Positions 15,214-40,680 are shown, counted from the first letter of the whole stretch. The stretch: 53,088 nt of DNA, filler included, from Dimargaris cristalligena (GCA_003614675.1; 3 parts of 3 records of this genome joined end to end with filler, not necessarily neighbours in it); one strand, 5' to 3'. Numbers and translations: made by a program. The notes: generated by a model from the sequence alone, not told the origin.

Positions 15214-17635
15214 GTGGGCTTATTCCCCCACAGCCATATACATTGGCCCCTCTGCGCCCTACACCCATTTTTCTTTGGTCACGCTTGGTGCATACTGGCC
15301 CAACTGGTGTATCGTTCACACGATCAAACTAAACTCCAATATAGAGGAGTCATGGCGCTCTGAATAGCATCCAGTCTCTTCGTGTTTATTTTACTATATC
15401 TTACCAGACACTCGCACCTATATTTATACCATTTAATATAAGACTATTGTGGACAGTTTCTTTAGTTTTTATGACATAATATATGTATAGCGGTGATTGA
15501 GTACGGGGGGCCTCGAAAGGCATGGTAGATTGTAACTGTTTAGCAACAATGCCAATATGTTCTTTCATATTCCGGAAAAAGATCGGAGATTCAGTTATAG
15601 GTATTTCATCTGGCCCAATCTTGTAAAGTAAATTCCCGATGGATACGCTAAGGGTCATCCGTAATACTGGGTCAGAGACGGGCCTAACATTTCACTACCA
15701 CTCTCTTCTGTTCCTTGCCATAAATGGCAGGATAACCCTGGCCAGGTCTACGGCAAGGAGCCTCACATGGGAAAATAGCCCGATACATAGTCAACTGAGC
15801 ATTAGCGTAGTGGGAAGTAATTGTCTGGCTTATAAATCGATAAAGCCCCCAATAACACTTATAAGCCCCATCCATTCCATTATGAAACTCGCCAACTTGG
15901 CTAATATATATGGACCAAGATCGAACCTAGGCAGACAGGGCCAGCTAAATGATAAGCATTAAATATACATGGTCCAACAAAGTAAGACCATACAAGATTT
16001 GCGATGTAAGACACTTATTGTAATAGATGAGATTAGGGCTTTTTCAAATTTTAGATGGACGTGTATGCAACTAAATAATGCGGACATAGTTGCTGAATAA
16101 TGCCTGATTGGGGCTCAATTATATTACACAGGGGATATGATAAAACTAGGTGTGTTTTTTTTGTAATGGCAATAGTTTCTGGTGTATTACGGCTATGCGA
16201 TGGTCAAATGAACCATGTGGTGGATCTAGATATGGTCACTGGCTGTCATATTGGTGGGGTTGAAAGTCCCAAAAGGTCCACAAACTATATTAGTAATATA
16301 AGCTAGTCGACAGTGAATAGGTTACTGCAACTATTATGGCTCAATGGATGGGATGGGTGCTGGGCTGCTAATGCAGCTATAATGGTAATTTACATAGAGA
16401 AATCGGCATCCCAAAGGAGACCATTGCTATGGGCCATAAACCATGTGCCCCAAAAATAACATTACCCAATAAACGTAGCAAGGCATCCTGTTCCAGTTGA
16501 TGATATTTGACCACCTTCAATCACACAAGCTTGGAAATAGGATGGATCATGAGTATCCCTTTTCCTATTTTAGCCCAAAGATTTCAGTTTACCAAGCTGT
16601 ACAATGTCCTTTGTATTTAACCACTAAAAATACTCCCAGCCAACTGCACCATTCAATAAAACTAAAACTACCCAGATGTATCTACTGTCCTCTAGCCAAC
16701 AACATCCCTTCCATACAGTTTTATTAATACATATTTAGAATTCCCAATAGAATGATCCCCAGCTACCCAGCCTGTCTCCATCTGAAGTCCAGATAAGAAT
16801 AGCCCCCACCAACTGCAAATTATTGTCCTAGAATCTCAGTTTCTTAAGAGGCTACCACAGTACCAGCTGGTGCTAAATAAATGTTATAAGTTTTATTTCA
16901 ACATGGAATTATGTTCTGCCTCGATAAAATCGATAGTCATCTTAAAGGCCATGTGTTATGAATACTATATGACAACTATTTGGAATGGGAACAGGAATAT
17001 GTAATATAGATAACATTATTGGATAAACTGCAAGCTCTCTCATAGATAATAATCCGAGATATATCAATATAGCCTAGGTAAATTAGATAAAAGTAGGAAA
17101 GAACCGCAAGGAGATGATTAAGCTCTCTGTGTTGGAAATTCATTTCCCCCGTCCCACCAATTCCTTTACTCTGATTAGCTCGTCCTATACTGGGGACTAT
17201 ATTCTAATCTTTACTATATCATTCTATACCTGGGACTTCATCCTAGTCATTATTACTACTAATTCCAACTCAATAAAACCTACCGCGGGCATCTAGCCTT
17301 GCCCCTTGCGGTTCTTTCTCTCTTCTTTAAAACATTTTAGTTGTATTAGAAGGTACTTGCGTTTACTATCAAATCCATATTTCCAACATAATGTATATGC
17401 TGGATATATATGGGAAAAGTTCAACCATACTATATAGTAATAAGTCTATTAGATGTAGCATAAACTACTAGTTAATAATAAATCTCTCATATTTTCCCAT
17501 ATGTGGTGGACTTACCACATTTTTTACCTACTTTTATTTTTAATCCATTTTTCACACTTATCAGAAGTATGCCCCTGACAAGTATAGTCATTTTTCCTCC
17601 ATTTTCATTATTATATTGTTTTTCCTATTATTATA

Positions 17636-17735
17636 NNNNNNNNNNNNNNNNNNNNNNNNNNNNNNNNNNNNNNNNNNNNTTAATTAATTAANNNNNNNNN
17701 NNNNNNNNNNNNNNNNNNNNNNNNNNNNNNNNNNN
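17636..17735. other. Artificial contig-join spacer (N44-TTAATTAATTAA-N44)
   Basis: Exactly 100 bp with a palindromic all-frame-stop linker at 17680-17691; identical to the spacer at 35365-35464. Confidence 0.97.
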
Positions 17736-20700
17736 GCGAAATAAGTATCGCCAATAAATAACAAAACGTCGACGGCATCTATTAACGATAATCTATTAAT
17801 GGTCATCTGGATTTGAACATGACAGCTCCCAGAGCGTAAATATATCCAATTATGGTAGGAAACGCTCCTCTGGTTCATCACATGATGTCAAGTTGGCGGA
17901 TTCAAGACAATCTAGGTATACTATCTTTTGGCGCTATCGTTATGATTTGGGCTATGAGAGAAACAAAGCAGAATGTTATACATATATAGATTTCTTATTA
18001 TGTCATTGACATGCACTACCACTTGCTCATGAGATGGTACTTTCAAAATCTCTAAAAAACCAATCACGTGACCGTATATATATATATGCGTGTTCACTGT
18101 GGAGCCCAAAGAGTTGTATTAGGAACCAGCTTGGGTTAAGGCATTTTTGAGTAAAATTTGATTAAATAGTTTCAATACAATGCATGCTATTGGTATTTTT
18201 GGAAACATTGATGCCAGCCATCCAAGAATATACCCATATTTATTGTTAGGCCCAACCTTTACTGTGTGTGAATTAAATATGATTCGTTTAAATACCCATG
18301 GTGGTTTTGGAGAGTTAAGTGTAACTGCTGTGTATGTCGCTACTGCTTCAAAGTCCACATATGATAGTCGTACTCAATGGATATGTATCGAAAGGGCGAA
18401 TTGCGGCTTCCTAGTCGAGAACCTGCGTTTATTATAATGGGAGATACCCGTCCCTAAACCTGGCTTGATATTGGACACTAGTTTCCAGAATAAGAATGGA
18501 ATGCCTTGCAATCAATTAAAGGCAATAATATGGTTGTTATTCCCTTTTAGGGGTAAATCACCCCAAACTAAGGTACATGCAATATATACCGGATATTCCC
18601 TTCATTCGGAATACCGTTCCGATATGTGGCCGTAGAATGAATCCCATTCGGGGGTAGGGGACATCAAAAATAGGGTTGAGGGTATTTAGAAATAGCCATG
18701 GGTCCATGTGTAATGGGGATACCTCCCGCACTGACAGACTATATCCAACAATTGCAGCATTTTAAAGAAGCCCCCTTTCTACATACGTCCAAGTAGTGAA
18801 AATGACAAGGATACTTGAATGGTGGCCCGACAGTAATATACATGTGCAGATGACAACCACTTAAACGCCGCTAACATCACCAACTAATACTCATCGACTG
18901 TATACCAGCCTATAGACTAGTGTGCCAAAAACAAGATCTTGCATTCAAAACCTACCATATAAGGCCTAATGGAAAGTAAATAAACGACCGTTAAGGTTAT
19001 ATATTTGACGGCATTCAGCGGCAGTCAATGACTAAACTGGTATATGGCGAGGCTGATTGGAATATATATTGCCGTGGGAATGCCTTTGATGACTACGTTC
19101 GTACGGGTGATGTAATACTTCTGCCGATTAGTGGTTGGGAGGGGCGAATATTATCAAAATGTAATTTTACCTAAATGGCCATCTATCTCCAAAAAAAGAA
19201 AAAAACAAAGAATCCGGGAGCGTATCCTTAGTCTTAGACTGAAAATGTAGCGAATGTCATCACTAATCCGGTACCTTGCATTTTTAGCGACTATAGGCGT
19301 ACCGTGAGCGAATATACAATGTTGGATATTGACTCTGAACCAGTCGATTCCGGTTAGCAAGTCGATTTGTATGTATAGCCGACGGCTGTCGCATAATATT
19401 ATGCTCATAGTATTGGAAAGACCGAAAAAAAGTTTACCGATGGGTTGAATTCAGCCTGGAGTATATATTCTAGTATGGTCGATATATGTTGAGTATCAGA
19501 CCTTAATAAGATACTATATTTTAGGGTAGTATACGCACCTAGTCTGGGCATAATATTAAAGGTATAAAATAATGGAGTCGGTAACCCTAGCCTTACTATT
19601 ATCCGCTGGGCTATCGGGAAATACATTGGGCCCCAATCCTGTTATATCTAGCACCTCGGTTGGCTAGCTAAGCTTAATAGATTACAAATATTTATTGTGC
19701 TATTTCGATCTTCAGAGTTCCCTACAGTAGGAGCATTGTATCTATTGTGACTGCAAAGGGTTCTTGTATTTATAAGTAGGAGCATTGGTATATACTCCAA
19801 AAAATGCAGCAGGCTTAATGTGATGATGGTATGGGTAATTGGCTAAACTCCGGGATGGCCTTGGTGAGTCCAAGGAAGTAGGGATCATTTTAAGGACATA
19901 TGCTGGTCGGAGACTACAGTTTAGTCCATATATTCCGAGACTTTAAGAACTAAATTACATACCCATAGCATCATGTACTCAGGCTTGTTTGATTCTCAGT
20001 TGCTAGCTGCATATTTTTTTATACAAAAGATACCTAGGATAGGGTTCTAACCATCAAGGGACGGTGCTACCCCTTAAAAAATATCAAGTGGATCAGTAGT
20101 GGAATATGTTGCTATGACGAGAATTATTATATGGTTCATCTTACTCGATCATACATGGCTCCGACTTAATAATCAGTTCCAGACGGATTATTCCTTATTC
20201 CCTGATATTATTTAAGCGTATGTATTAAAGCATACTCATATTGGTACGTGGATAACGACATAGGTTCCAATTGAACACCAGTCGGCTTTGAAGCCAGGCA
20301 GTGTGTACATTACGTACCTTTCATACCCCATAGTGGCGGTAGGCAGCCCCCGACAAAGTAAATTAGGCCATCACTGACTAATGTCGTCCAAGAAGGCGGT
20401 CCAGTCGCACATATACTAACCTGCCGAGGCATGTGGGTGCCAAATAAAGTATATCAGCTGCATAAGAATATGGCGACAATTGTATTGATTCTGGCCATGA
20501 TTCAGCGCCAGTTAATGAGTGAAAATAGAAGAACGGGTGTTTCATGAGTAAGTCGAGGCTCAACAGTCAACTATCACTTGGGTCTCCGCTAAGAGCCATT
20601 ATGATATATAATTTAATATAATGGCACACAAATCGTCCAACTCTGCAATTAAAAAAGAATCGACGGTTATGCTTGATCTCATCGATCGGCTATAAGGTAC

Positions 20701-23700
20701 CGATGAGGTGTAATGCATTTTAAGGGATGCTATGTATAGAAATCGGATCGGATCGTACAATTGATGGGTGATGTTAGGTTGCTATCGAGATCGCCACTTC
20801 TATGCAAAACGATCCAGTACATAGAGGGCTTTATAATATGACTACCCCGCAAATCTGCTTGACACGATTTAGTGAACAAGCCCTCAGTGATGAGGCATAA
20901 GGGTGAAATTTGGCCCAGCTGCATAACAATTTTTATATTATTGGTATGGGAGAATAGTCAGGAAATTCATTTTAAATCAGTAATTTTTGCCTCATTAAAC
21001 GAGTTTTTTGTTGTACGGCCTGGTTGAACCTCTCCGATATTACCTACGCTCTATTCTGCCATTATAAGACTGGATCCAGCCCGATATATTGTTTCATTCT
21101 TCCAAAAAAACAACTATTTTAGAGCCAAATGTCTTCAAATTTTGGGTAATGGGAGACCCTATAGTATTAGAAGCAAGGTCGTGAAATGACACAAAAAAGC
21201 AACCGAGGGATTGTGGGGATGCGGTTGCATGAAAGCTAAATCCCAATTCACTTAGTGACAAGGCCCTACAGTGCGGCTAACGGGAATTAGTCTATGGTAT
21301 ACTTCCGAATAAATCCTTTCTAATAACAACTGGTTAGCCTGGGCCTTTGGTAGTACTTCCAAATAAAGTAAAAATAGTGAATTGAAATAGCTGGTATGCA
21401 TCCCGTAAATCATATACGCTTGGACAGTGTAGTTTGGCAACATGGTTAAAAGTATTCCCATTGATTGATACAGGGAATTTAACCTAAATGGGTAGAGGGG
21501 GTTGACCTGTGCTTCATGGCTATGTACATCTGAAACTTCATTGACACGTACGAGCCATATGTACGTAGAGAAATATATATCTATGCATATCAGCGGACCT
21601 GGCTGTGTTCCTGGATAAGGTGGTCCCGGTCAATTAAACTTATATAATTCTGGAATGAACTTACAAGGATAGCAATGACTAACACGGTAGCTTCCTAAAA
21701 CTATACAGATAGTAGTATCAGACTAGAGTCTATCCATCTGCATAACAAAAAAAAATATCAAAACTGGTATAGCTAGTTTAGCGGTAATGTCCGGCCTGCT
21801 TTCCCGTTTACATCTCTTTAAATGACTTATACAGTTGTTGACTTTAGCTTTTATGTATCTTCTACCTTGCTATAAGGTGGTTTTACAAAATGAGATTATA
21901 GACATCTGCGTTCATTCCGAAAATCCGTGTGGAATACGAATTCCCATCACAGTCATAGGCATGTTTGTCGGTTCGTCTAGCAGCAGTTTTACCTGTTTAA
22001 TCCGTTTACTATTGCCTTGGAATAGGTGTATAATGCAACCAAAATTATCTAGTATTCTGAAAACTCCCCCAGGTCTATCAAATATCGGTCCGTTGGGCCG
22101 TACCTGGTGGGATATCAAATGGGACTAAGCAAAGCGCATCTTGGCCAGTCGCTGTTTCAAAGGCTAACGGACCCACTCCGCGACAGGATAGTAAGTGGCC
22201 TACCGTTGGGCGTTATGAAACGCATCTTTTCTTGAGAGCGAGACTTTAAATCGATATGGGGGAATTTCCTGGGGTGGTCAATAAATGGGCCACTCACTAG
22301 AAATCCCTTGGAATATCACATCCTCTAAAATACGGAGGTAGTGTTGGTAACCGTGTCTACCCAACAAAAAAACTTCTGGTTTCCACACTCAAAGTGGATA
22401 GATGAGGGGAAACGAGTTTGAGTGAAACTGGTACCGTGTTTTTTTGTCCCTCATGATAATATACCGCCGCACCCGTCTACCCACAACCTAGAGCTATTGA
22501 CAACGGCTAAGATACGTTGGACTTGGTAAACGAGTACTATCTGCAGCCAACTTACTTTACAACATTGGGTAAATTGGGATCAGGTGGGGGGATAAGTCGC
22601 ACACACATACCCGCATGTCCAGGGGGTGCTATAACCTCTACTCCTTCACAGCCACCTCCTTCCCCCTGTATTACCAAATGATTCCAAATTAGACCGCGTG
22701 CCAGTGGCCAGTTCCAATCATAAAAAGAAAGGTTTTAATACACCGTCTGGCCAAATAGGAAACGTGACTCAGGATCCCGCCAATTCCATGTAGCTTCTGG
22801 TGGTTTAGGGTATTGGTCTATAATAAACCTTAAGACCTAGCGCATTCCATGCCAATGCAGCAGTAATACCAGCCAACGGAAAATAACTAGAGGCGGTGCT
22901 GTAAGATGCCCTAAACTTTCGGTAATGAGCTGGGCAGACTATAATTCCTTAAATCCATTTACTACGGATATTCTGGGTGTTATTTGGCACCCAAGGGCCA
23001 GTCGGAAAGGGCGGTCGGATGATGAAGTTTGTCCTAGAGTATTCATGGTTTCCGTATCATCTTTAATCTACGCCACCGTCAAACTCCACCACTACGCCTT
23101 GACTACCCTGCTACTAACTGCCACCCCCTTATTATTCGGGTTGAACAGTATATACCAATTCGCTTTTCCCCGCATACGATCAAGTATTTTCGAGGTGTGC
23201 TGGTACAGCCATGACCGCTGGCAAGGAAGATTGGCCAGTGATACTCATTAGGCACTATTCAGTACCACTCAGGAGAAAAATGACGGAAGTCTCGATATGG
23301 TGTACTGGATGAGGGGTCGTGAATTGTCTGGCTGCATTGTCACTATTATTATTACACGATCTCTTCATACCCAACCCATGGGGTGACCAGGGTAACTGTC
23401 CTATTAATCACATGATTATGTACCCGTGGGGCAATGTTCTCGGGGGCTGAAGGGCAAACGTCAAGGGAGATTTGGGGATCAGGTGAGGCGCCTATTAGGT
23501 AAAACTGGTTTATAGGTCTACTATCATACATTTCTCATAATCCAAACAATTGATCGGTTACGTACTCAATCCACAACCAGCGACTTCCCCCCTTTCTCCC
23601 AATAGGACAGTGTTGTATAGGGCTTGAACCGGCAATTATACAGGGGACGATATAAAATCTATGACCATCGGCGAGTGGATCGCGACCTCTATGGTTTTTC

Positions 23701-27291: not shown

Positions 27292-27974
27292 GGCGCCGAC
27301 TCCCTCCTGGGTTACCCCTTATCAAACCATCCCCTTGGCCTGACCTCTCCTACTAGTGTCTCAACTTGCACCGATCCGGCGCTTCCTACTCTTTGCTATA
27401 TTTTGCTTCCCTACCGTCCCACTCCCATTCGAGTGGAATAAGCGCCCGTCCTGTTTTTCTTTTGCGTTGAGACCACCGCTTCATCCGTCGCTATCGATAA
27501 TTTTTGCCCAACTTAGGGCTCCATATTTCCAGTGCCTAGGCGGTTCTCGTTGGTAAAGGTTCTGACCAAATATTCTGGCCGTAATCGCTGTGCCCCCCTC
27601 CTGTTGCGTACCATTTGAAGCTGGTATTGTATTGGAATCGATCCCTTTTTGATCGCTATAAACTCTTGCCTGGGGAACATTCCGTGAACCATCCAACCTG
27701 CTTCCCACAACCACCCTGAGTGACTAGCCTCCCTAACTAACACCTGGATCTTTTTCAAATTTCCAACCTCCTAGTGTCTTTAAATTAAGCAATACTCTCA
27801 ATATCACATTTCTCTACATTGCCACCCGAACATTCCTCATTGACAAGCCCTTCCTTTCACCTTGGCATTGTTTCAAAGTTACATCGTCACGTAACTCCCG
27901 TATCATTAATTTATCCTAGCCGCTCATTATTCTCGTTCATTCCCCACCCCTTGCCCTGTAAGCACCGCTACATT

Positions 27975-29324
27975 ATGCTGAGCCAATCCTTCGCCAGCCA
28001 CTCTTACAAACAGATCAAGCATCCGTTCTTCACTGCGGAGCAGATCAGCGAGGCCCAAAAGTATGAAAGTCCCGACCACACAAACAGTTCGCCGTATCAT
28101 CCCAGTATGAGCAGCTCACCCTATACCCCTATTTTCCCATCCGAGAACGACATGGTCGCTCATCCGCATGGCCTGTACCCGCATCCTATTTCCGTATCCA
28201 CAAGTGGCCAGTCGCCCGCTCTGTCCAACGGCTCTGGCGTTCCACACAGCTCCAGCCACCCGGACATGGGGGCACATATGGTATCTTCCGGGGTCCACAC
28301 GCCGGGTATCACTACACCGCTCCTGTTCTCCGCCCCCACTGGTGGCGACCTGTGCTCGTCGGCCACTGGCCTAAAGTTTGTCAACGGCGGCCAGCAGTTC
28401 TATTCGTCGGGGTCCCCTAATGAGTCCCATATTCCGCCCCATTCCCCGATGGCTTCCCTGGAGCACCAGGGCCAGTCCATGGAATCCCCGGTTCACCCAT
28501 CCCGGCCAGTGACGCTAGGATCACACCACGCGCACCGCCAGCAACCGCCGGTTATGTTCAACCAGCCAAGCTTTGTGGCCCTGCCCTATTCGACAATAAT
28601 GGGGGCCTCCGCTACACCCCACCCTGCTTCCCACGCCTCTCTCTCTTCCTCCAACGATGGCCATCTCGTTCCCTACCAGTCCGTGGAACCCAGAATGGAG
28701 GGTCTATTGGGTTACCCGAGCTCCTTCAACTTCTCATATGATCTCCAACCCCCATTAATGAATCCTTCCATGTCGTTCTCGTCGGATTACTCGGCTTCGT
28801 CGCGTGACTCCTGCGATTACCCCATTTCGGCAGGCGTTCTGCATTCTCCCCACGGAGGAGCAATGCTTCCGGATTTTGCCACTAGTATGTCTAATGGAGG
28901 GGGCTATCAAATGGGGCCGAATCCCGATTCAGTTCACCCGATGGACACTGAGCCCAACGTGCCCCGGTCCAAGCGCAAGCGCGGTAACCCCCGTCCGCGT
29001 CGCTCCGCCGGTGAAAAACCCAAATCTAATACCCACCGTGACCCCAAGGAAAAGCGCTTCCCATGTCCCGTAGAGGGGTGTGGTGTGCGATTTAATCGCG
29101 CCGAACACGTCCAGCGCCATTATAAGTCCATCCATCTTAAAGTGCGTCCCTTTGAATGCCCCGAGCCCGGCTGCGGCAAGGTCTTTTCACGAACGGACAA
29201 CCTAACCCAGCACCGCAACACTCATAACCGGTCGAAGTCGAAGGCCAAGGAACGCGAATATCACACCGCGTTTGTTAATACGACAGTCCCCGACACCAGC
29301 AGTATCAAACGTCGTATGGAATAA
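27975..29324 (+). CDS. Msn2/Msn4/Seb1-type C2H2 zinc-finger transcription factor (449 aa)
   Basis: Ser/Pro/His-rich disordered N-terminus, basic NLS-like RSKRKRGNPRPRR, and two C-terminal fingers (CPVEGCGVRFNRAEHVQRHYKSIH; CPEPGCGKVFSRTDNLTQHRNTH). The RxEH / RxDNLxQH helices are typical of STRE-binding Msn2/4- and BrlA-like factors. Confidence 0.88.
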   Translation: MLSQSFASHSYKQIKHPFFTAEQISEAQKYESPDHTNSSPYHPSMSSSPYTPIFPSENDMVAHPHGLYPHPISVSTSGQSPALSNGSGVPHSSSHPDMGAHMVSSGVHTPGITTPLLFSAPTGGDLCSSATGLKFVNGGQQFYSSGSPNESHIPPHSPMASLEHQGQSMESPVHPSRPVTLGSHHAHRQQPPVMFNQPSFVALPYSTIMGASATPHPASHASLSSSNDGHLVPYQSVEPRMEGLLGYPSSFNFSYDLQPPLMNPSMSFSSDYSASSRDSCDYPISAGVLHSPHGGAMLPDFATSMSNGGGYQMGPNPDSVHPMDTEPNVPRSKRKRGNPRPRRSAGEKPKSNTHRDPKEKRFPCPVEGCGVRFNRAEHVQRHYKSIHLKVRPFECPEPGCGKVFSRTDNLTQHRNTHNRSKSKAKEREYHTAFVNTTVPDTSSIKRRME

Positions 29325-33905: not shown

Positions 33906-34488
33906 TGTCACCCAGGTTAACCACTCTTAGTCTGTTAAGAGTCCCAAGGATAGGCTTATAATGGTAGGCAGGGCTAAAACTCAGCTAAGTGGGCTACTAG
34001 CATTAGGATGGGGGCATAGTACTAACCAATAGAGGCTTAGGCAATGGGATTATGCAAGGGATGTACAATGGCATACTTACTAGTCAGTATAAGGGGGGTG
34101 AGTATATATAGAGTTTATTGGGGTAAACTAGGGGGTAAGGATAAGCTAGGGAATCTAACTGGTCCTAATGATGCCTGGTTATATATATACAGGGGTAACT
34201 CCAGAGGGAGGTCCCAAGGGGAGATACTACTAGACTATGGTATAGATAAATAGACCAACCAGATGGGCCTCATATCTGGAATACTCTTATGGGAACTGGA
34301 AGAGTCTTCAGATCAGTAGGTTAAGTGTTTTGTGTGAAGCATTGGGGGCTGGAAGGAGAATAGTTATATAACAACTGATGATCCCATAGTACCGGGGTTG
34401 ACCATGGGAGGGTTAATATGGTGCTATAAGGCCTAATAAGGGTAGACAATCATTAAGTCCAGATTAAGTCAGATTAGGAGGGCTGACA
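33906..34488 (-). mobile_element. Degenerate LTR copy 1 (583 bp), probably the 3' LTR of a Ty3/gypsy-like retrotransposon
   Basis: Minus-strand termini TGTCA...TGACA. Internal TATATATAA (near 34179-34189) then AATAAA (34119-34114). Immediately preceded by a polypurine tract. Homologous to 34840-35364 in inverted orientation, with homology starting exactly at the 5' TG. The 3' boundary rests on the TGACA terminus only. Confidence 0.78.
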
Positions 34489-34520
34489 TTACCCTCTCCT
34501 ACTGGAGCCTCATCCTTGAA
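34489..34520 (-). mobile_element. Polypurine tract and 3' internal motif of the LTR element
   Basis: Minus strand reads TTCAAGGATGAGGCTCC-AGTAGGAGAGGG-TAA-TGTCA. This fits a CpG-decayed TCGAGGACGAG motif plus PPT abutting the LTR, as in Ty3/gypsy 3' ends. Confidence 0.68.
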
Positions 34521-34839
34521 ACCTTTGACAAATGGAATGATCTGGTTGCTAGAGACTCATTCTTATTGGTGGTGTTTGTCATGTACCACAGGGGTGATGG
34601 TATAGGTGTTACCACTGTGGCAAGGTGGAGTGTCCCCTTGATTACCACAGGTATAAATTATTATATTTATATATAAGGTATGAAGTGGCTTTTTTTTCTG
34701 GTATAACCAGATTTTCTCCCTTCCCCTTTAACCCATTCTTTCCATATAAATTTTCCCTTTGATTTTTATATATTCCTATTGATTAATCCACCATTTTCAT
34801 AGAATTGGATATACATATTCATGCATGATTATTAGTGGC

Positions 34840-35364
34840 TGTTGGCCCTCCTAATCTGACTTAATCCAGACCTAACAATCACCCATCCTTATTAGGCCTT
34901 ATAGTGACATATTAACCCTCCTATAGTCACCCCCTGGTACTATGGGTCATCATTTATTATATAACCCCACTCATTCCAACCCCAATACTTTGCACCCAAA
35001 ATACTCAACTTGCTGATCCAAGACTCTTCCTGTTCCCATGAGAGTCTTCCCAATGTAAAGCTATCCAGTCAGATTCTTTACCTATCCATACCTTAGTCTT
35101 AGTAGTATTTCCCTTGGGACCTCCCTCTGGAGCCATCCCTGCATATATATAACCAGGCCCCACTGGGACTAGTTCAATGGTCAGCTTGTTCATATCCCCC
35201 AGTTTACCTCAATAAACTCTATATACACTCACCTCCCTTGTACTAACTAGTAAGTGTACCTTCTGCATGTCCCTGATATTTACCTGTATTCTCCATTATT
35301 AGTTAGTATTATGCCCCCATCCTAATACCAGTAGCCCACTTGGCTGAGTCTAAGCCCCACCTAC
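34840..35364 (+). mobile_element. Degenerate LTR copy 2 (5' or solo LTR), truncated by the assembly gap
   Basis: Begins TGTTGGCCCTCC (copy 1: TGTCAGCCCTCC). TATATATAA at 35144-35152, AATAAA at 35211-35216. Aligns to the reverse complement of 33964-34488 up to the Ns. No PPT upstream. Confidence 0.75.
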
Positions 35365-35464
35365 NNNNNNNNNNNNNNNNNNNNNNNNNNNNNNNNNNNN
35401 NNNNNNNNTTAATTAATTAANNNNNNNNNNNNNNNNNNNNNNNNNNNNNNNNNNNNNNNNNNNN
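35365..35464. other. Artificial contig-join spacer (N44-TTAATTAATTAA-N44)
   Basis: 100 bp, linker at 35409-35420, same as 17636-17735. Confidence 0.97.
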
Positions 35465-37219
35465 TCAATACGGCTCTGTAGGAACAGTAGAGGCACTTAT
35501 AGGTAGTGGCTTTTCATCACAATTTTAGATTGCAATGTCTCAGCAATTTGGGGTTCTCATTAGTAATAAGGTTGGCATTCTCATGGCCTTTGCTGTTAAT
35601 TTAACAATCAAAGAGTTATCGTTAATCTAGCAGGGGGTAACTGTCACTATTCTTTTAGTGAGTTTACGGCACTACACTCGTAAGTGCTACAATATTAGCT
35701 GCTACCCCATCCCGCTCAATATTAACTTTTATGTTGTGGCCTACAAAACTCCATAAATACTTGGTAGCCAGTCGCAGATTTGGGAATAGATAAACAGACC
35801 CGAGTGGGCACATCGATCAGTTTTATATTCAAAGGCAGTACTTGTCGAAGCACGCCGGCCTTTAATAAATTCTTTCGCCGTTGTAAAAGTAAGCTCTCTT
35901 GGCAAATTGGTAAGGTAATGTGAAATCATCCCCAGATATCCAAGTATGGTCAATTTTGGCCCTAATTTTGGCACATTATAATTCTCATTGCAGTCTAGAC
36001 TCCCAAACTACCTCAAAGTTGGGTTTTTAATACAAGACGGTCAGATTTTTAAGCATATCCGCAAATCAAATATACACTGTTTTCTCATGTATCTTTTGTA
36101 TCTAATCGGATACCAGGGTTATAGTATTATGCTACTATCCCCCATAAGCGAACTTTTTTTTTTGCAGTCTTTAACTGGCCAAAATAGGTCGACGCTTATC
36201 CGATGTTCCGTGTAATTTGGGGACACTCCTCCCGCCCCAGAGTAATTTGCGTAAGCTTAAGGGCAGCACATTTACCCGGCAACAGTTGGCCTAGTGTATT
36301 TATGGTGCCCATTTCGTAGGGCCATCTTTCTCCCCTTTCTCATGCACCATCCTCCATTCCCAGTAGATTTCATTGGAGATTGACTTTCATCCATGGGTTT
36401 GCATTACATCGTACTACCATAAGAGAAGTATTGCAGAGAGCAATTCAGCCCGTAGTAAAACAACAGAGAGGTCGCTATCAAAGCAGATGCCTTGACCCAT
36501 AATATATTAAGGCAGTCAATGTAAGGATCCACTGTATCCCATGTAATACAATGGAATGTTCGCTCGCAGGGATGGTATAGCACTTAGATAGCTTGAAACC
36601 CAACACTGGTTATGAAGTAGGGTGGTTTCAATTATGAGGGAGATCATGTTAGATGGGTAAATTAGGACGCCACAAGAGTACAAGTAGTCTGACTTGTGTA
36701 CCTGGTATATGCGGCCGTGGTTTCGTGGCCCAGCCATCCGGTCGTTGACGATTGGGAGGAAGATATCGCTCAATATGCAACGGGACTTTCGTTGGCGGCG
36801 GAGAGATGATGGGTATCTTTATGGTGAGTAACCTATCGTAGTACGATAGCCATGCTGTACAATGTCTAGATGAAGGGCTGCCACTCATTAGACTATGGAT
36901 GAAACGCAATACTTTGTGTAGCCCCAACTACATGTATAATTATATAGGAAAATGGTGCATAGGGACCTTCTTAAATAGTAATTTACGTGTTATTTGAGAA
37001 ACGAAAACGCGAGTGTTATTTAGGATTGTTTAAGTTGGTCAGTGCCGTCAACCGAACGGGTGATGTTTTGTAAACCATAGAAATAGGCATGATATCGCCT
37101 CTATATTCAACAACATCCGCAATGTTTCGGGTATACCTCGCCTAGCTTCAATGCCGATACATTACTCATTCCATTGCATTTTCACCGCCAACTGGATTAT
37201 TTGACAATTGTGTTGTATT

Positions 37220-37229
37220 TATATATATA
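37220..37229 (+). promoter_or_regulatory. Candidate TATA element upstream of the signal-peptide zinc-finger gene
   Basis: TATATATATA about 80 bp before the ATG at 37310. Confidence 0.4.
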
Positions 37230-37309
37230 GCTACAGTTTTAGACAGCAATTCATATGTCTGCTGTGGTTTAGTTAAGCATTACATCACCGGTTGTCTATA
37301 ATCAGCAAA

Positions 37310-37981
37310 ATGCGTTTCATTGGAGCAGCCTGCTTTTTTTTCCTGGGCTCATTCACGGCCAGTCAAGCCTCCGAGCAGGATACCCAACTCACCAGTCTCA
37401 ACAACCTTCTCAATACCAACAGCCTCGATAGCAGCGTCGAGGAAGAAGTTGCGGATCTAGCCAATGATCCTTTTTTCCACACTTGGTCAACGGAGCAGCA
37501 GCTAGTGTATATCAGTCAACTAGACAGTAATGAGTTGGCCAGCTTCAATGCCCATCTCGAATACCTCACGAACAACGAGGACATCGATCAGCCCACCCAA
37601 GGACCCGGGTCTTTAGGTGTGAACCCCCCTGCCGCGGCCAGTGGTTCCGGTTGGGGAAGTGGCAGTCTCCCCTTTCCAGTGACCCAGTCCTCCTCCACCC
37701 AGGCGCCAATGTACTGGGACACCGACAACGTGCAACAACAACGGGTGCCCAAAAGCAACCGTGTAAATCGGGAGGCAAATTGTGAGGAGAAACCATTTGG
37801 TTGTCCGAAATGCCTTAAAGAATTCGTCCGGAAATATGATCTCAAAAGGCATATGCTGACCCACACTGGTGAAAAATCCTTCGTTTGTGAAGGGTGTGAT
37901 AAGTTATTTAGTCGTCGGGATGTCCTGAAATCCCATAAGAGAAAGAATTGTCTTGGACAAAGTGCCGAAGTCCACTCCTAG
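37310..37981 (+). CDS. Predicted secreted C2H2 zinc-finger protein (223 aa, intronless)
   Basis: ATG 37310 in AAAATG context. Signal-peptide-like MRFIGAACFFFLGSFTASQA|SEQ, then an acidic/aromatic segment. Fingers KPFGCPKCLKEFVRKYDLKRHMLTH-TGEKS-FVCEGCDKLFSRRDVLKSHKRKNC (second finger CCHC-type). Confidence 0.85.
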   Translation: MRFIGAACFFFLGSFTASQASEQDTQLTSLNNLLNTNSLDSSVEEEVADLANDPFFHTWSTEQQLVYISQLDSNELASFNAHLEYLTNNEDIDQPTQGPGSLGVNPPAAASGSGWGSGSLPFPVTQSSSTQAPMYWDTDNVQQQRVPKSNRVNREANCEEKPFGCPKCLKEFVRKYDLKRHMLTHTGEKSFVCEGCDKLFSRRDVLKSHKRKNCLGQSAEVHS

Positions 37982-39047
37982 AAATAAATGATTTCAGCCG
38001 CCGACGGGTTAATTCAGTTGAGTTCTGATCCGCCCTACTCACAGAGGCATTCTCGCCTACTGGCACTGGGGCAGTATTTTGGAACTGAGTTACACGGCGT
38101 AAAACTATAAATTCCCCCGACTTCTTCTCTTTTATAAAACTCTATTTGCTGATCCATTTTGACGAATAGAGGAGAAGACGACCTATGTCTTCATCGAAAG
38201 AGGACCTCGACCTCTAAACTTCAATCGTTTAACTATTTTACGAAAATAAAATCCAATTTATATGGGTCTACTTATCTTGGTGGATGAATGGCTATACCTT
38301 AGCAATTGTTAATAGTAAACATGGGAAAAGCATTGTTTCGGCCAGGGAAGGACTACAATTGCATTATAGAGTGGCGAACGCTCCATTGGGGAATCTATAT
38401 TTCCATGCGAATTCGGTTTACCGTTGGTCCTCTAATCGCCAACGCCAATTTCTCTTTTTGCAATATGCACCTTTCAATGGTCTTTCTCTTATGTCACAGC
38501 TGGTTAATAAGTTAGTGAAATCAGACAGGGACTAGAGTGAACAGAACGGGGTGTATAGTTGTATTCGGGGGTGTTAGTACAATTATAGGTTATAATCCAA
38601 CCGTCCTATTATGTCAGTACCAAATTGAGCATCAGCTACGCCCCTGTCCTCTGTGGGCCTATCTTCCCCGCCCTATATGCCCATCTTCCTAGGTATATGT
38701 AGGATATGATCAACCGGACAGTATAACACAAAATCCGTTGGATAAGGCACGCACTGCTAGTTTAAGTTGAATCATCCGCCTATTATCCCATAGACACACC
38801 ATGTAAAGCCTTATATAGTCGGGCCGAATTTCACACTTATTCAATTTGGTGGTGTATACATTTAATACAAATTATAGTCGCCATTACAACTAACTGCGGT
38901 TGGGTAGTGAAATCAATCACATTAACATACGGGGATAGGCAATTCAAAAAAAAAACACTGGCCGGTCTTGGCTTTGGTTAATATACAGGGCGTTCGACCA
39001 GCTCCTCCTTCGCCATTGAAAGTCGAAGATCGGTATACGGATAACAT

Positions 39048-40423
39048 CTAGTCGAACTCGCCCAGCATCATTATAATATCCTGAAGGGTTTTGTCTTCCG
39101 CCCAGTCAAGGCCACTTTCCAGAATAAGTCCCTGGTAAAAAAAACAAAGGGTAGTAAGTAGTTGTTGAACCGGGAGTTGTATTAGGCCATAAGTTCACGG
39201 CATTTTCCATCATTAAATCATTAGGCCAAGTAGGACATGGTGAGGCTAAAGATCACATGTCATTTCAAGTCGACTTGTCGAAGTTCGACTAGAAATAGTG
39301 ATAATAAGGGTATGAAAGAGTATATAAATAGCCTACCTGAAGAACGTTCCGGATGACTTCCAATTGGGAAGTAAGTTTAGAATGCTCCGAGTCTAGTCTA
39401 TAATACCAGTAGGATCGGGGGGGGGGGGGGATATGCATTAGTTAAATGGGGAATTAGTATCGTGGTCTCTTGTCCCTAGTTAGGCAATACAATATGCAAT
39501 CCAAAGATAAGGCGAGAGGGCATTTAATATTAGATACTTACTTTCGCAATTCACTGGCCGTGGTCCGACTGGGCGTGGCGCTCGATCGGCTAGACCCTTT
39601 AATGGATTGTACTTTGGCCATCAGCTCCCGGTTTTTGCTATGCTGGGCTATAAGCGACTGCTGGATGGCCTGACGCTCATCGTTAACGGCCGCCAAATCC
39701 TGCATCGCCACGGCCAGCTCCCGGGAAAGCTTGTCGCGTTGATGAAGGGTTTCCTGTAATTTACTATACTCCCGAAAACAGAAAAATAATAATCGCCCAA
39801 TAAAATGTAAGTCATTAATAAACCGATAAGGAGATTCCGTAAATTAGGTGTAGTGTAGTGATGTGTGGCGGCGAGCAGGGTCGGAATTGCCAACTGGGTG
39901 CTATGTTATGTTGGTATCAGCGATTATTCACCTCTGGGGAGGTGGCTGGCTGGTCGGTTTTATAAGGAACCATAGATTGAAAAATAGTGGAATAGGCAGT
40001 CGCTTACATATCCACGTAGCTGGTGTCCTTCGCTGACTTCGCGTTGGACTTCTGTACCTGATCGACTAATGCCAAATTAGAAAGGATGGCCAAACGAACC
40101 CCATTATGTGCGGCTTCTTGAAGCAATTCGGCCTTTAGGTCATCGATGGTGTTTAGTAATCCGTCTTCGGCCAAACTGGCCTGGCGCATGGCCGCGGCCG
40201 AAGTGGCGCTGGAGTTCTGCAGTTCAGCGGCTAGAGCGCGTTCCTCCTGCTGGCCTAGAGAGGCCCTTTGGTCCTGTTGGTTTAGGAAGTGGCTGTATTC
40301 GGAATGGGTGAGGGGTTGGTAGAAATGGGCCGGTTGGAGGGGCTGAATGCCAACCCGGGCCCGAAGTACGGTTTTTAGTAAATGAGTACTAAGTACTTGC
40401 AATTCCTGGAAGGTGGTGGTCAT
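39048..40423 (-). CDS. Kinetochore protein CENP-H/Fta3/Mcm16 family (260 aa; exons 40423-40008, 39763-39542, 39397-39337, 39131-39048)
   Basis: Phase-consistent GT-AG splicing gives a coiled coil (LQETLHQRDKLSREL...KNRELM) ending LEVIRNVLQGLILESGLDWAEDKTLQDIIMML, the CENP-H C-terminal signature. Confidence 0.85.
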
Positions 40424-40680
40424 GGTATAGGATTGAACAGTGAGAACGAAGAAATAGAAAAATAAAACAGCTTAGGTCGAATGAGCTATGGCAAGGAAAA
40501 TGGCAACACGTCAAAAGGCCGAAATAAATGTAGTGGGAAAGACAGGAATGTAATTGAAGGAACACAAAAGGATTGTAAAGTTGGAAGGGAAAATAGGGAG
40601 CGAACGAGCTGGGTGTGCTAAAAATTTATTGCAGTATGTGCCCCATAATACTTGCATTTCTCAAGGGCTTCCATTGCGTT

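Follow-up and report, generated by a model that had tools for sequence, protein, structure and literature searches.

The window analyzed here is a stretch of 53,088 nt from Dimargaris cristalligena (GCA_003614675.1), composed of contigs joined end to end. At positions 37310..37981 of its plus strand we identified a small gene whose product of 223 amino acids (aa) combines a signal-peptide-like leader at the N terminus with an acidic and aromatic region and two C2H2 zinc fingers at the C terminus. The gene is real, compact and intronless, and it seems restricted to the D. cristalligena lineage. Judged from the features of its leader, the protein probably enters the secretory route. By analogy with nuclear effectors of Magnaporthe oryzae, we tentatively propose that it is a secreted C2H2 effector that acts in the nucleus of the host, a reading that we regard as possible while falling short of probable. 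An earlier note on this DNA had described the same architecture of export-type leader, acidic/aromatic stretch and two DNA-binding-type fingers, and it is confirmed as real by hydropathy, charge counts, Pfam and matches to solved structures.

The features of the gene are given below, where P0002 is its only full-length relative, most likely a paralog.

37220..37229, plus strand: TATATATATA run, a candidate TATA box, 81-90 nt 5′ of the ATG
37310..37981, plus strand: complete coding sequence with no intron signal, based on the codon model, the lack of a GTRNGY donor inside and the exact 223-aa protein in NCBI nr
37310..37369, plus strand: signal-peptide-like leader, residues 1-20, with R2, core F3-F15 and S18-Q-A20 before S21
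37370..37588, plus strand: acidic/aromatic region, residues 21-93 (DPFFHTW, EQQLVYISQLD), 62% identical to P0002
37589..37738, plus strand: G/S/P/Q-rich linker, residues 94-143, predicted to be disordered
37739..37795, plus strand: conserved basic arm, residues 144-162 (RVPKSNR..R), just before finger 1, with invariant columns in the alignment with P0002
37796..37864, plus strand: finger 1, canonical C2H2, residues 163-185, with R(-1), D(+3) and R(+6), identical in P0002
37865..37879, plus strand: inter-finger linker TGEKS, residues 186-190 (TNEKP in P0002)
37880..37951, plus strand: finger 2, residues 191-214, C-x2-C-x12-H-x4-C, with R(-1), D(+2), V(+3) and S(+6)
37983..37988, plus strand: AATAAA, a candidate polyadenylation signal directly after the stop codon

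Three results indicate that the feature goes beyond chance: the coding score of its open reading frame (ORF), a full-length homolog with 54% identity, and an N terminus that is rare among C2H2 proteins. The ORF is complete from ATG to TAG, and the compact intronless gene of the earlier note is borne out by translation, codon usage and a scan for splice donors. The ATG has a strong context (caaaATGc, with A at -3). An in-frame TAA at 37274-37276, 12 codons 5′ of this ATG, limits any unspliced N-terminal extension. A codon log-likelihood model was built from four long ORFs of the window that have Pfam support. Scored with it in the ORF frame, the first 60 codons reach +26.8 bits, codons 1-133 reach +51.2 and the finger part reaches +17.6, and all five other frames were lower (4.7 or below). 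Both flanks (35465-37309 and 37982-39000) were negative in all six frames, and minus-strand coding signal begins about 1.6 kb 3′ of the gene, adjoining an ORF at 40004-40471. Because the codon signal begins at the 37310 ATG, the coding region starts at this position or very close to it and includes the hydrophobic N terminus. NCBI nr contains the exact 223-aa protein, and the identical protein is also known from a second contig of different length.

The earlier note had raised the possibility of an upstream exon, of which we detected no sign in the sequence, given the in-frame stop and the codon model. The GTRNGY donor scan of 36700..38000 found a single site, GTGAGT at 36824, and none inside the ORF. 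An exon ending there is unlikely, as by a strict motif the site lacks a branch or acceptor partner and lies in sequence without coding signal. At 36821-36829 of the plus strand, 486 nt 5′ of the gene, an ATG is directly followed by this consensus-like GTGAGT, probably by chance. A mini-ORF of five codons (ATG..TAG, 37255-37272, plus strand) follows the TATA-like run and precedes the main ATG; it is out of frame with the gene and would be an upstream ORF only if transcription starts further upstream.

The evidence for export lies in residues 1-20, with the sequence MRFIGAACFFFLGSFTASQA, followed by SEQD. The positive R2, the hydrophobic core F3-F15 and the polar TASQA follow the n/h/c-region pattern of Sec-type signal peptides. 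We judged the leader by Kyte-Doolittle (KD) hydropathy and the -3/-1 rule, which are heuristics and not a trained signal-peptide predictor. The top 9- and 19-residue windows of the protein begin at residues 3-4, and the leader reaches maxima of 2.25 (11-residue KD) and 1.29 (19-residue KD) with an uncharged run of 16 residues. This run is too short for a membrane span. Residues 3-15 are the sole hydrophobic segment of the protein, as the earlier note had stated; the best 19-residue window past residue 25 scores 0.31. At the C terminus we found neither a hydrophobic segment nor an HDEL/KDEL retention signal for the endoplasmic reticulum (ER). The 223 residues contain no N-glycosylation sequon, which is neutral for the proposed export.

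The earlier note had called this a typical signal peptide cut after residue 20 at S-Q-A. By the heuristics used here the type of leader holds, with R2, the core, S at -3 and A at -1 in agreement, and the cut site is less certain, since cuts after residues 14 and 18 also pass the crude -3/-1 rule. To place the leader among other N termini we used the C2H2 and HIBCH homologs gathered during this analysis. An 11-residue hydropathy of 2.25 was reached by 2 of 152 other C2H2 proteins starting with M and by none of 113 mitochondrial HIBCH homologs, and an uncharged run of at least 15 occurred in none of either set (0/152 and 0/113). We rejected a mitochondrial presequence, as the leader is hydrophobic with a single basic residue, unlike the 113 HIBCH N termini. 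Under the positive-inside rule, a basic N-terminal end and an acidic flank favor translocation of the C-terminal part. The leader core has R2 before it and a net charge of -15 after it, and the C-terminal part is therefore predicted to be translocated.

Searches for relatives returned a very small family. Among 5.8 billion proteins, a whole-protein search (lengths of 122-391 aa) gave five matches, of which four covered the fingers only and one, P0002, was full-length. P0002 is a hypothetical protein of D. cristalligena with 238 aa, and 126 of 233 aligned residues are identical (54%; E = 1e-64, 226 bits). A profile of residues 1-160, built from both proteins and run against the same 5.8 billion proteins, again matched P0002 and nothing else among 553 candidates of 87-301 aa. 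We also searched a representative library with the whole protein. This gave 92,976 matches at E ≤ 0.001, dominated by poly-zinc-finger proteins; the best 150 of these were all 802-5807 aa long and aligned via their fingers, and a match like P0002 (226 bits) would rank below them. In four of these best 150 the best stretch started before residue 100: P0163 (46-212), P0239 (77-209), P0252 (82-212) and P0172 (92-212). The ESM Atlas gave no usable match to residues 1-158. With tblastn of both proteins against the window we found no second copy, only a weak finger-level match to the window's other C2H2 gene at about 28884-29240.

The relationship to P0002 was considered in the light of a housekeeping gene. 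The HIBCH protein (3-hydroxyisobutyryl-CoA hydrolase) encoded in the window is identical at 493 of 495 positions to a named D. cristalligena protein, and its next matches are from Dispira simplex (57%), D. xerosporica (56%), D. verticillata (55%) and Tieghemiomyces parasiticus (51%). As the housekeeping protein differs at just 2 of 495 positions between records, P0002, at 54% identity, is most likely a paralog rather than an ortholog or allele. The species has been suggested to be non-haploid (PMC9866270), which would allow for divergent alleles, and with the same contrast in identity we consider this explanation unlikely. Neither the whole-protein search nor the residue 1-160 profile detected a relative in the other annotated Dimargaritales proteomes that the database contains (Dispira, D. 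xerosporica, D. verticillata and Tieghemiomyces). Based on annotated proteomes, the family thus looks restricted to D. cristalligena. The P0002 cluster at 90% identity has a single member, though other genes of the species seem to be represented in two annotated records; the difference may reflect presence/absence variation or a gap in annotation.

The earlier note had asked whether relatives lack the leader. The only full-length relative keeps it: 12 of 20 leader positions agree, and each of the four core substitutions exchanges one hydrophobic residue for another (A to V and three times F to L). The hydrophobic region of the P0002 leader reaches an 11-residue KD of 2.65 with an uncharged run of 17. 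P0002 also keeps ASEQD after the leader, DPFFxTW, EQQLVYISQLD, the RVPKSNR arm and both fingers. Identity is even along the protein (56-63%), except for finger 2 (42%) and the tail. Both genes remain open over 223-238 codons and differ in length by in-frame indels only.

The C-terminal module matched the Pfam family zf-C2H2 (PF00096) in two stretches with 39.7 bits (cut-off 25.2). Its best matches among solved structures are Aart (5e-53), ZNF568, PRDM9, CTCF and Zif268/EGR1, and by these similarities the fingers are of the consensus/Krueppel DNA-binding type. The TGEK linker and the contact residues of the earlier note agree with our assignment, with R(-1), D(+3) and R(+6) in finger 1 and the RRDVLKS positions in finger 2. 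In the Zif268-type recognition code, RxxDxxR suggests GCG. The contact residues of finger 1 are the same in P0002, and those of finger 2 differ at +3 and +6 (N/R in P0002 versus V/S). In finger 2 the last His of the canonical pattern is missing: the third zinc ligand is H209, and N213 occupies the position of the last His and is followed by C214, which by its placement is likely the fourth ligand of a C2HC-like variant. In P0002 this finger has a canonical H-x3-H, then G-C (HQSIHGC). Because H209 is the third ligand, HKRK is the end of the finger 2 helix and not a separate basic tail, as had been claimed, and it is not conserved in P0002.

Charge is unevenly distributed over the protein. Residues 21-100 contain 15 D/E and no K/R (net -15), and residues 161-223 have a net charge of +8. 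Residues 21-93 are a candidate activation or interaction domain, and the basic arm is a candidate segment for nuclear import or contact with the DNA backbone. In an AlphaFold2 model from the two-row alignment, the mean predicted local distance difference test (pLDDT) score was 43, with 65-75 for the fingers and low-confidence helices in residues 21-93. Judging by this model, the first two thirds of the protein are probably disordered for the most part and contain some helices of low confidence.

Ordinary fungal two-finger C2H2 factors belong to the same Pfam family and also have two C-terminal fingers, to which the tblastn match is confined. They are proteins of 400-500 aa whose long N-terminal part is rich in S/P and has no leader, in contrast to the 223 aa and leader found here. 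The window has one such gene on a different contig (27789-29324, plus strand). Its frame of 511 codons encodes two C2H2 fingers at the C terminus (Pfam 44.8 bits) and, before them, a long stretch rich in S/P that lacks a hydrophobic leader. This is an ordinary transcription factor.

The lifestyle of the organism is relevant to the function of such a protein. Dimargaritales are parasites of Mucoromycota and of some Ascomycota, acting through an appressorium and a biotrophic haustorium (PMC9866270), and D. cristalligena is regarded as a biotrophic mycoparasite and has been grown with Cokeromyces recurvatus (PMC6784888). The earlier note had suggested a parasitic or symbiotic fungus, and the former is in agreement with these descriptions. 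With a biotrophic, haustorium-forming mycoparasite as the producer, a host-directed effector role is plausible.

Secreted proteins of this architecture have a precedent. In M. oryzae, 20 predicted secreted proteins have DNA-binding domains, and 10 of the 20 are C2H2 proteins; MoHTR1 and MoHTR2 are secreted by way of the biotrophic interfacial complex, arrive in rice nuclei and bind to defined elements (PMC7672089). MoHTR3 combines a signal peptide with a nuclear localization signal (NLS) and a C2H2 domain and depends on the signal peptide for its secretion (PMC10189765). All three of these “host transcription reprogramming” proteins carry the same three elements and, once secreted, get into rice nuclei (PMC7672089, PMC10189765). 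The earlier note held that C2H2 arrays do not normally enter the secretory route, a premise that overlooks these proteins. As secreted C2H2 nuclear effectors were already known, it overstated the novelty of the find. MoHTR proteins were mined as small proteins with a signal peptide and a C2H2 domain and without a membrane span, glycosylphosphatidylinositol anchor or ER-retention signal (PMC7672089). The protein studied here has the domain, the size, no second hydrophobic segment and no KDEL/HDEL, and its signal peptide is indicated by heuristics only.

The likeness to MoHTR1-3 comprises an N-terminal signal peptide or signal-peptide-like leader, small size, a C-terminal C2H2 domain with basic flanks, lineage restriction and a biotrophic producer (PMC7672089, PMC10189765). 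We found no homology outside the finger motif, as the residue 1-160 profile matched P0002 only; the MoHTR sequences were not directly compared. MoHTR1 and MoHTR2 have been compared with the single-finger GAGA domain (PMC7672089), whereas in the Dimargaris protein TGEK links two fingers and there is also a long acidic region, an arrangement suggestive of an activator. The MoHTR proteins are made by Magnaporthe and act on rice, whereas the protein described here is made by an early-diverging member of Kickxellomycotina with a fungal host and is known from sequence alone.

Bacterial TAL effectors and the CRN nuclear effectors of oomycetes have been named as analogues of MoHTR (PMC7672089). What they share with the proposed role is the concept of a parasite-made, DNA-directed protein that is delivered to the host nucleus to alter transcription. 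TAL effectors also bear an acidic activation domain. Their DNA-binding folds and delivery routes are unrelated to those considered here (type III secretion for TAL and RXLR/LFLAK-type uptake for CRN effectors), and there is no sequence relation.

We found no report in the literature of a secreted C2H2 protein in mycoparasites. The terms “zinc finger” and “C2H2” do not occur in the main text of two surveys of zygomycete and mycoparasite secretomes and effectors (PMC13188720, PMC9391592), whose supplements lie outside this count and may list P0002, and the main text of the D. cristalligena genome paper (PMC6784888) has no occurrence of “secreted” or “effector.”

In combination, we tentatively suggest the following mechanism, which has the same logic as that of the Magnaporthe MoHTR nuclear effectors. 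The leader would bring the nascent chain into the ER and would be cut after A20. The mature protein of roughly 200 aa would then be secreted at the interface with the host, whose hypha would take it up, and the basic arm and the fingers would bring it into the host nucleus. There the fingers would bind short G-rich sites (finger 1, with RxxDxxR, perhaps a GCG by the Zif268-type code) and the acidic region would recruit the transcription machinery. The argument for a DNA-directed role in the host nucleus is that TGEK-linked fingers with conserved base contacts and an acidic/aromatic region would be secreted by a haustorial biotroph.

A more far-reaching version, which we consider doubtful, is that both paralogs would be the first transcription-factor-like effectors of fungus-on-fungus biotrophy, passing from Dimargaris haustoria into Mucoralean host nuclei and activating host genes there by means of an acidic activation domain, in convergence with the strategy of MoHTR and TAL effectors. 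As finger 1 is constant (R/D/R) and finger 2 has diverged (V/S versus N/R), each paralog would in this version address a different host site.

Several observations weigh against a secreted effector. The gene-sparse setting, which the earlier note had counted in its favor, is an artefact of contig joining, and the neighbors on the same contig are housekeeping genes (pieces of an M24 peptidase-like gene, a PIH1-domain gene and MnmE). Both the whole-protein and the profile search yielded a family of only two, so the expansion that the earlier note had thought worth checking is lacking. The leader of P0002 has no K/R before the core (Y2 in place of R2). Its -3 residue at the aligned cut is N, and the crude rule accepts a cut after residue 14 only. 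No conserved classical NLS was seen, and HKRK is absent from P0002. One other public annotation (P0277) is a fragment of 51 aa at 37787-37939 that covers the two fingers only and lacks a start Met; the annotations thus disagree over the N terminus of the gene. The AlphaFold2 model is poor, as its mean pLDDT indicates, and uninformative on the fold of the N-terminal part. In addition, the dibasic KR, RR and KRK within the fingers are possible sites for Kex2-type proteases of the Golgi, and the cysteines that serve as zinc ligands must withstand the oxidizing ER. Overall, an effector role is plausible, strengthened by the lifestyle and weakened by the false gene-sparse context and the two-member family.

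We considered four other explanations for the gene. First, it may encode a transcription factor of the parasite itself, which acts in its own nuclei, perhaps with a minor secreted fraction, and whose N terminus is a weak or bypassed leader or an interaction or degradation element. Its fingers belong to the standard nuclear type that binds DNA, the acidic region is typical of activators, the neighborhood is housekeeping and there are only two copies. Moreover, the P0002 leader has no charge in its n-region and an N at -3, one annotation pipeline did not call the N terminus, and the equally hydrophobic N termini in 2 of 152 other C2H2 proteins indicate that the combination occurs in predicted proteomes. 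However, the leader stays hydrophobic across roughly 45% divergence with conservative swaps only, and its length, its extreme N-terminal position, the charge asymmetry and the small residues at -3 and -1 fit a signal peptide. The ATG context is strong, with A at -3, the codon signal begins at this ATG, and the other C2H2 factor of the window (27789..29324) has no leader of this kind. We regard an endogenous factor, the main rival, as rather unlikely, while taking it seriously.

Second, the protein may enter the secretory pathway without being an effector of the host nucleus, either as an extracellular protein of the cell wall or haustorial matrix, with fingers that bind zinc, nucleic acid or another ligand, or as a resident of the ER or Golgi. 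All of the leader evidence would apply here as well, and the lack of a conserved classical NLS counts in its favor. TGEK-linked fingers with conserved R/D/R contacts are, however, a hallmark of sequence-specific DNA binding, the protein has neither an ER-retention motif nor another hydrophobic segment, and the known proteins with precisely this combination act in the nucleus. We consider this explanation improbable.

Third, the gene may be a young duplicate that is weakly expressed or non-functional, with an intact ORF and a leader of no selected function. It is lineage-restricted, and the searches detected no relatives among the annotated proteins of Dispira, D. xerosporica, D. verticillata and Tieghemiomyces. 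Nevertheless, copies at 54-57% identity have kept 223-238 codons open with in-frame indels only and even conservation, codon usage is gene-like and public records include the identical 223-aa protein from a second contig; we consider an idle duplicate very unlikely. Fourth, a transcription factor tethered to the ER or nuclear envelope by an uncleaved signal anchor until its proteolytic release would fit a protein with one hydrophobic segment, at the N terminus, and a DNA-binding domain behind it, and we consider it highly improbable, as the core of 13-16 residues (19-residue KD maximum of 1.29, uncharged run of 16) is short compared with a span of about 19 or more, R2 before it and the net -15 after it would put the fingers on the wrong side, in the lumen, by the positive-inside rule, and the small residues at -3 and -1 favor cleavage.

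If the protein is a secreted effector, it would join an already known kind, the secreted C2H2 nuclear effectors, and the fungus-on-fungus setting would be what is new. The effector biology of haustorial mycoparasites in Zoopagomycota is essentially unexplored, and no effector is known to have been characterized in this early-diverging lineage. A secreted DNA-binding protein would be a concrete handle on how one fungus reprograms another, and the gene is small, intronless and easy to clone. If the leader turns out to be non-functional, the case would be a warning that calls of “signal peptide plus transcription-factor domain” made from sequence alone need transcript and secretion data.

When examining the layout of the window we noted two identical spacers of the form N44-TTAATTAATTAA-N44, at 17636-17735 and 35365-35464, which join three pieces of 17,635, 17,629 and 17,624 nt. 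The second of them defines the contig of the gene.

35365..35464, no strand: artificial spacer N44-TTAATTAATTAA-N44, which joins two contigs; the gene's own contig is 35465..53088

The distance from the beginning of this contig to the gene is thus 1,845 nt. As the spacers separate three contigs, the 8 kb of ORF-poor sequence that appears to be upstream is not contiguous with the gene, and the argument from a gene-sparse setting falls. Any synteny or intergenic distance read across the spacers is invalid.

A scan of the entire window with Rfam gave no matches. Between 2592 and 14340 the first contig is dense in housekeeping genes, including a class I/II aminotransferase, an XPD/Rad3-type helicase (DEAD_2, HBB and Helicase_C_2), a 3-hydroxyisobutyryl-CoA hydrolase and the exocyst component Exo84. 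The region 16001-22000, which extends across the first contig junction, has a low GC content (0.345-0.399, versus 0.45-0.56 elsewhere) and almost no long open frames. At 33964-35364, reaching the end of the middle contig, we identified nested imperfect inverted repeats with four arm pairs of 64-95 nt that are 81-87% complementary and centered near 34660. These repeats may be a foldback-type element or a feature of the assembly.

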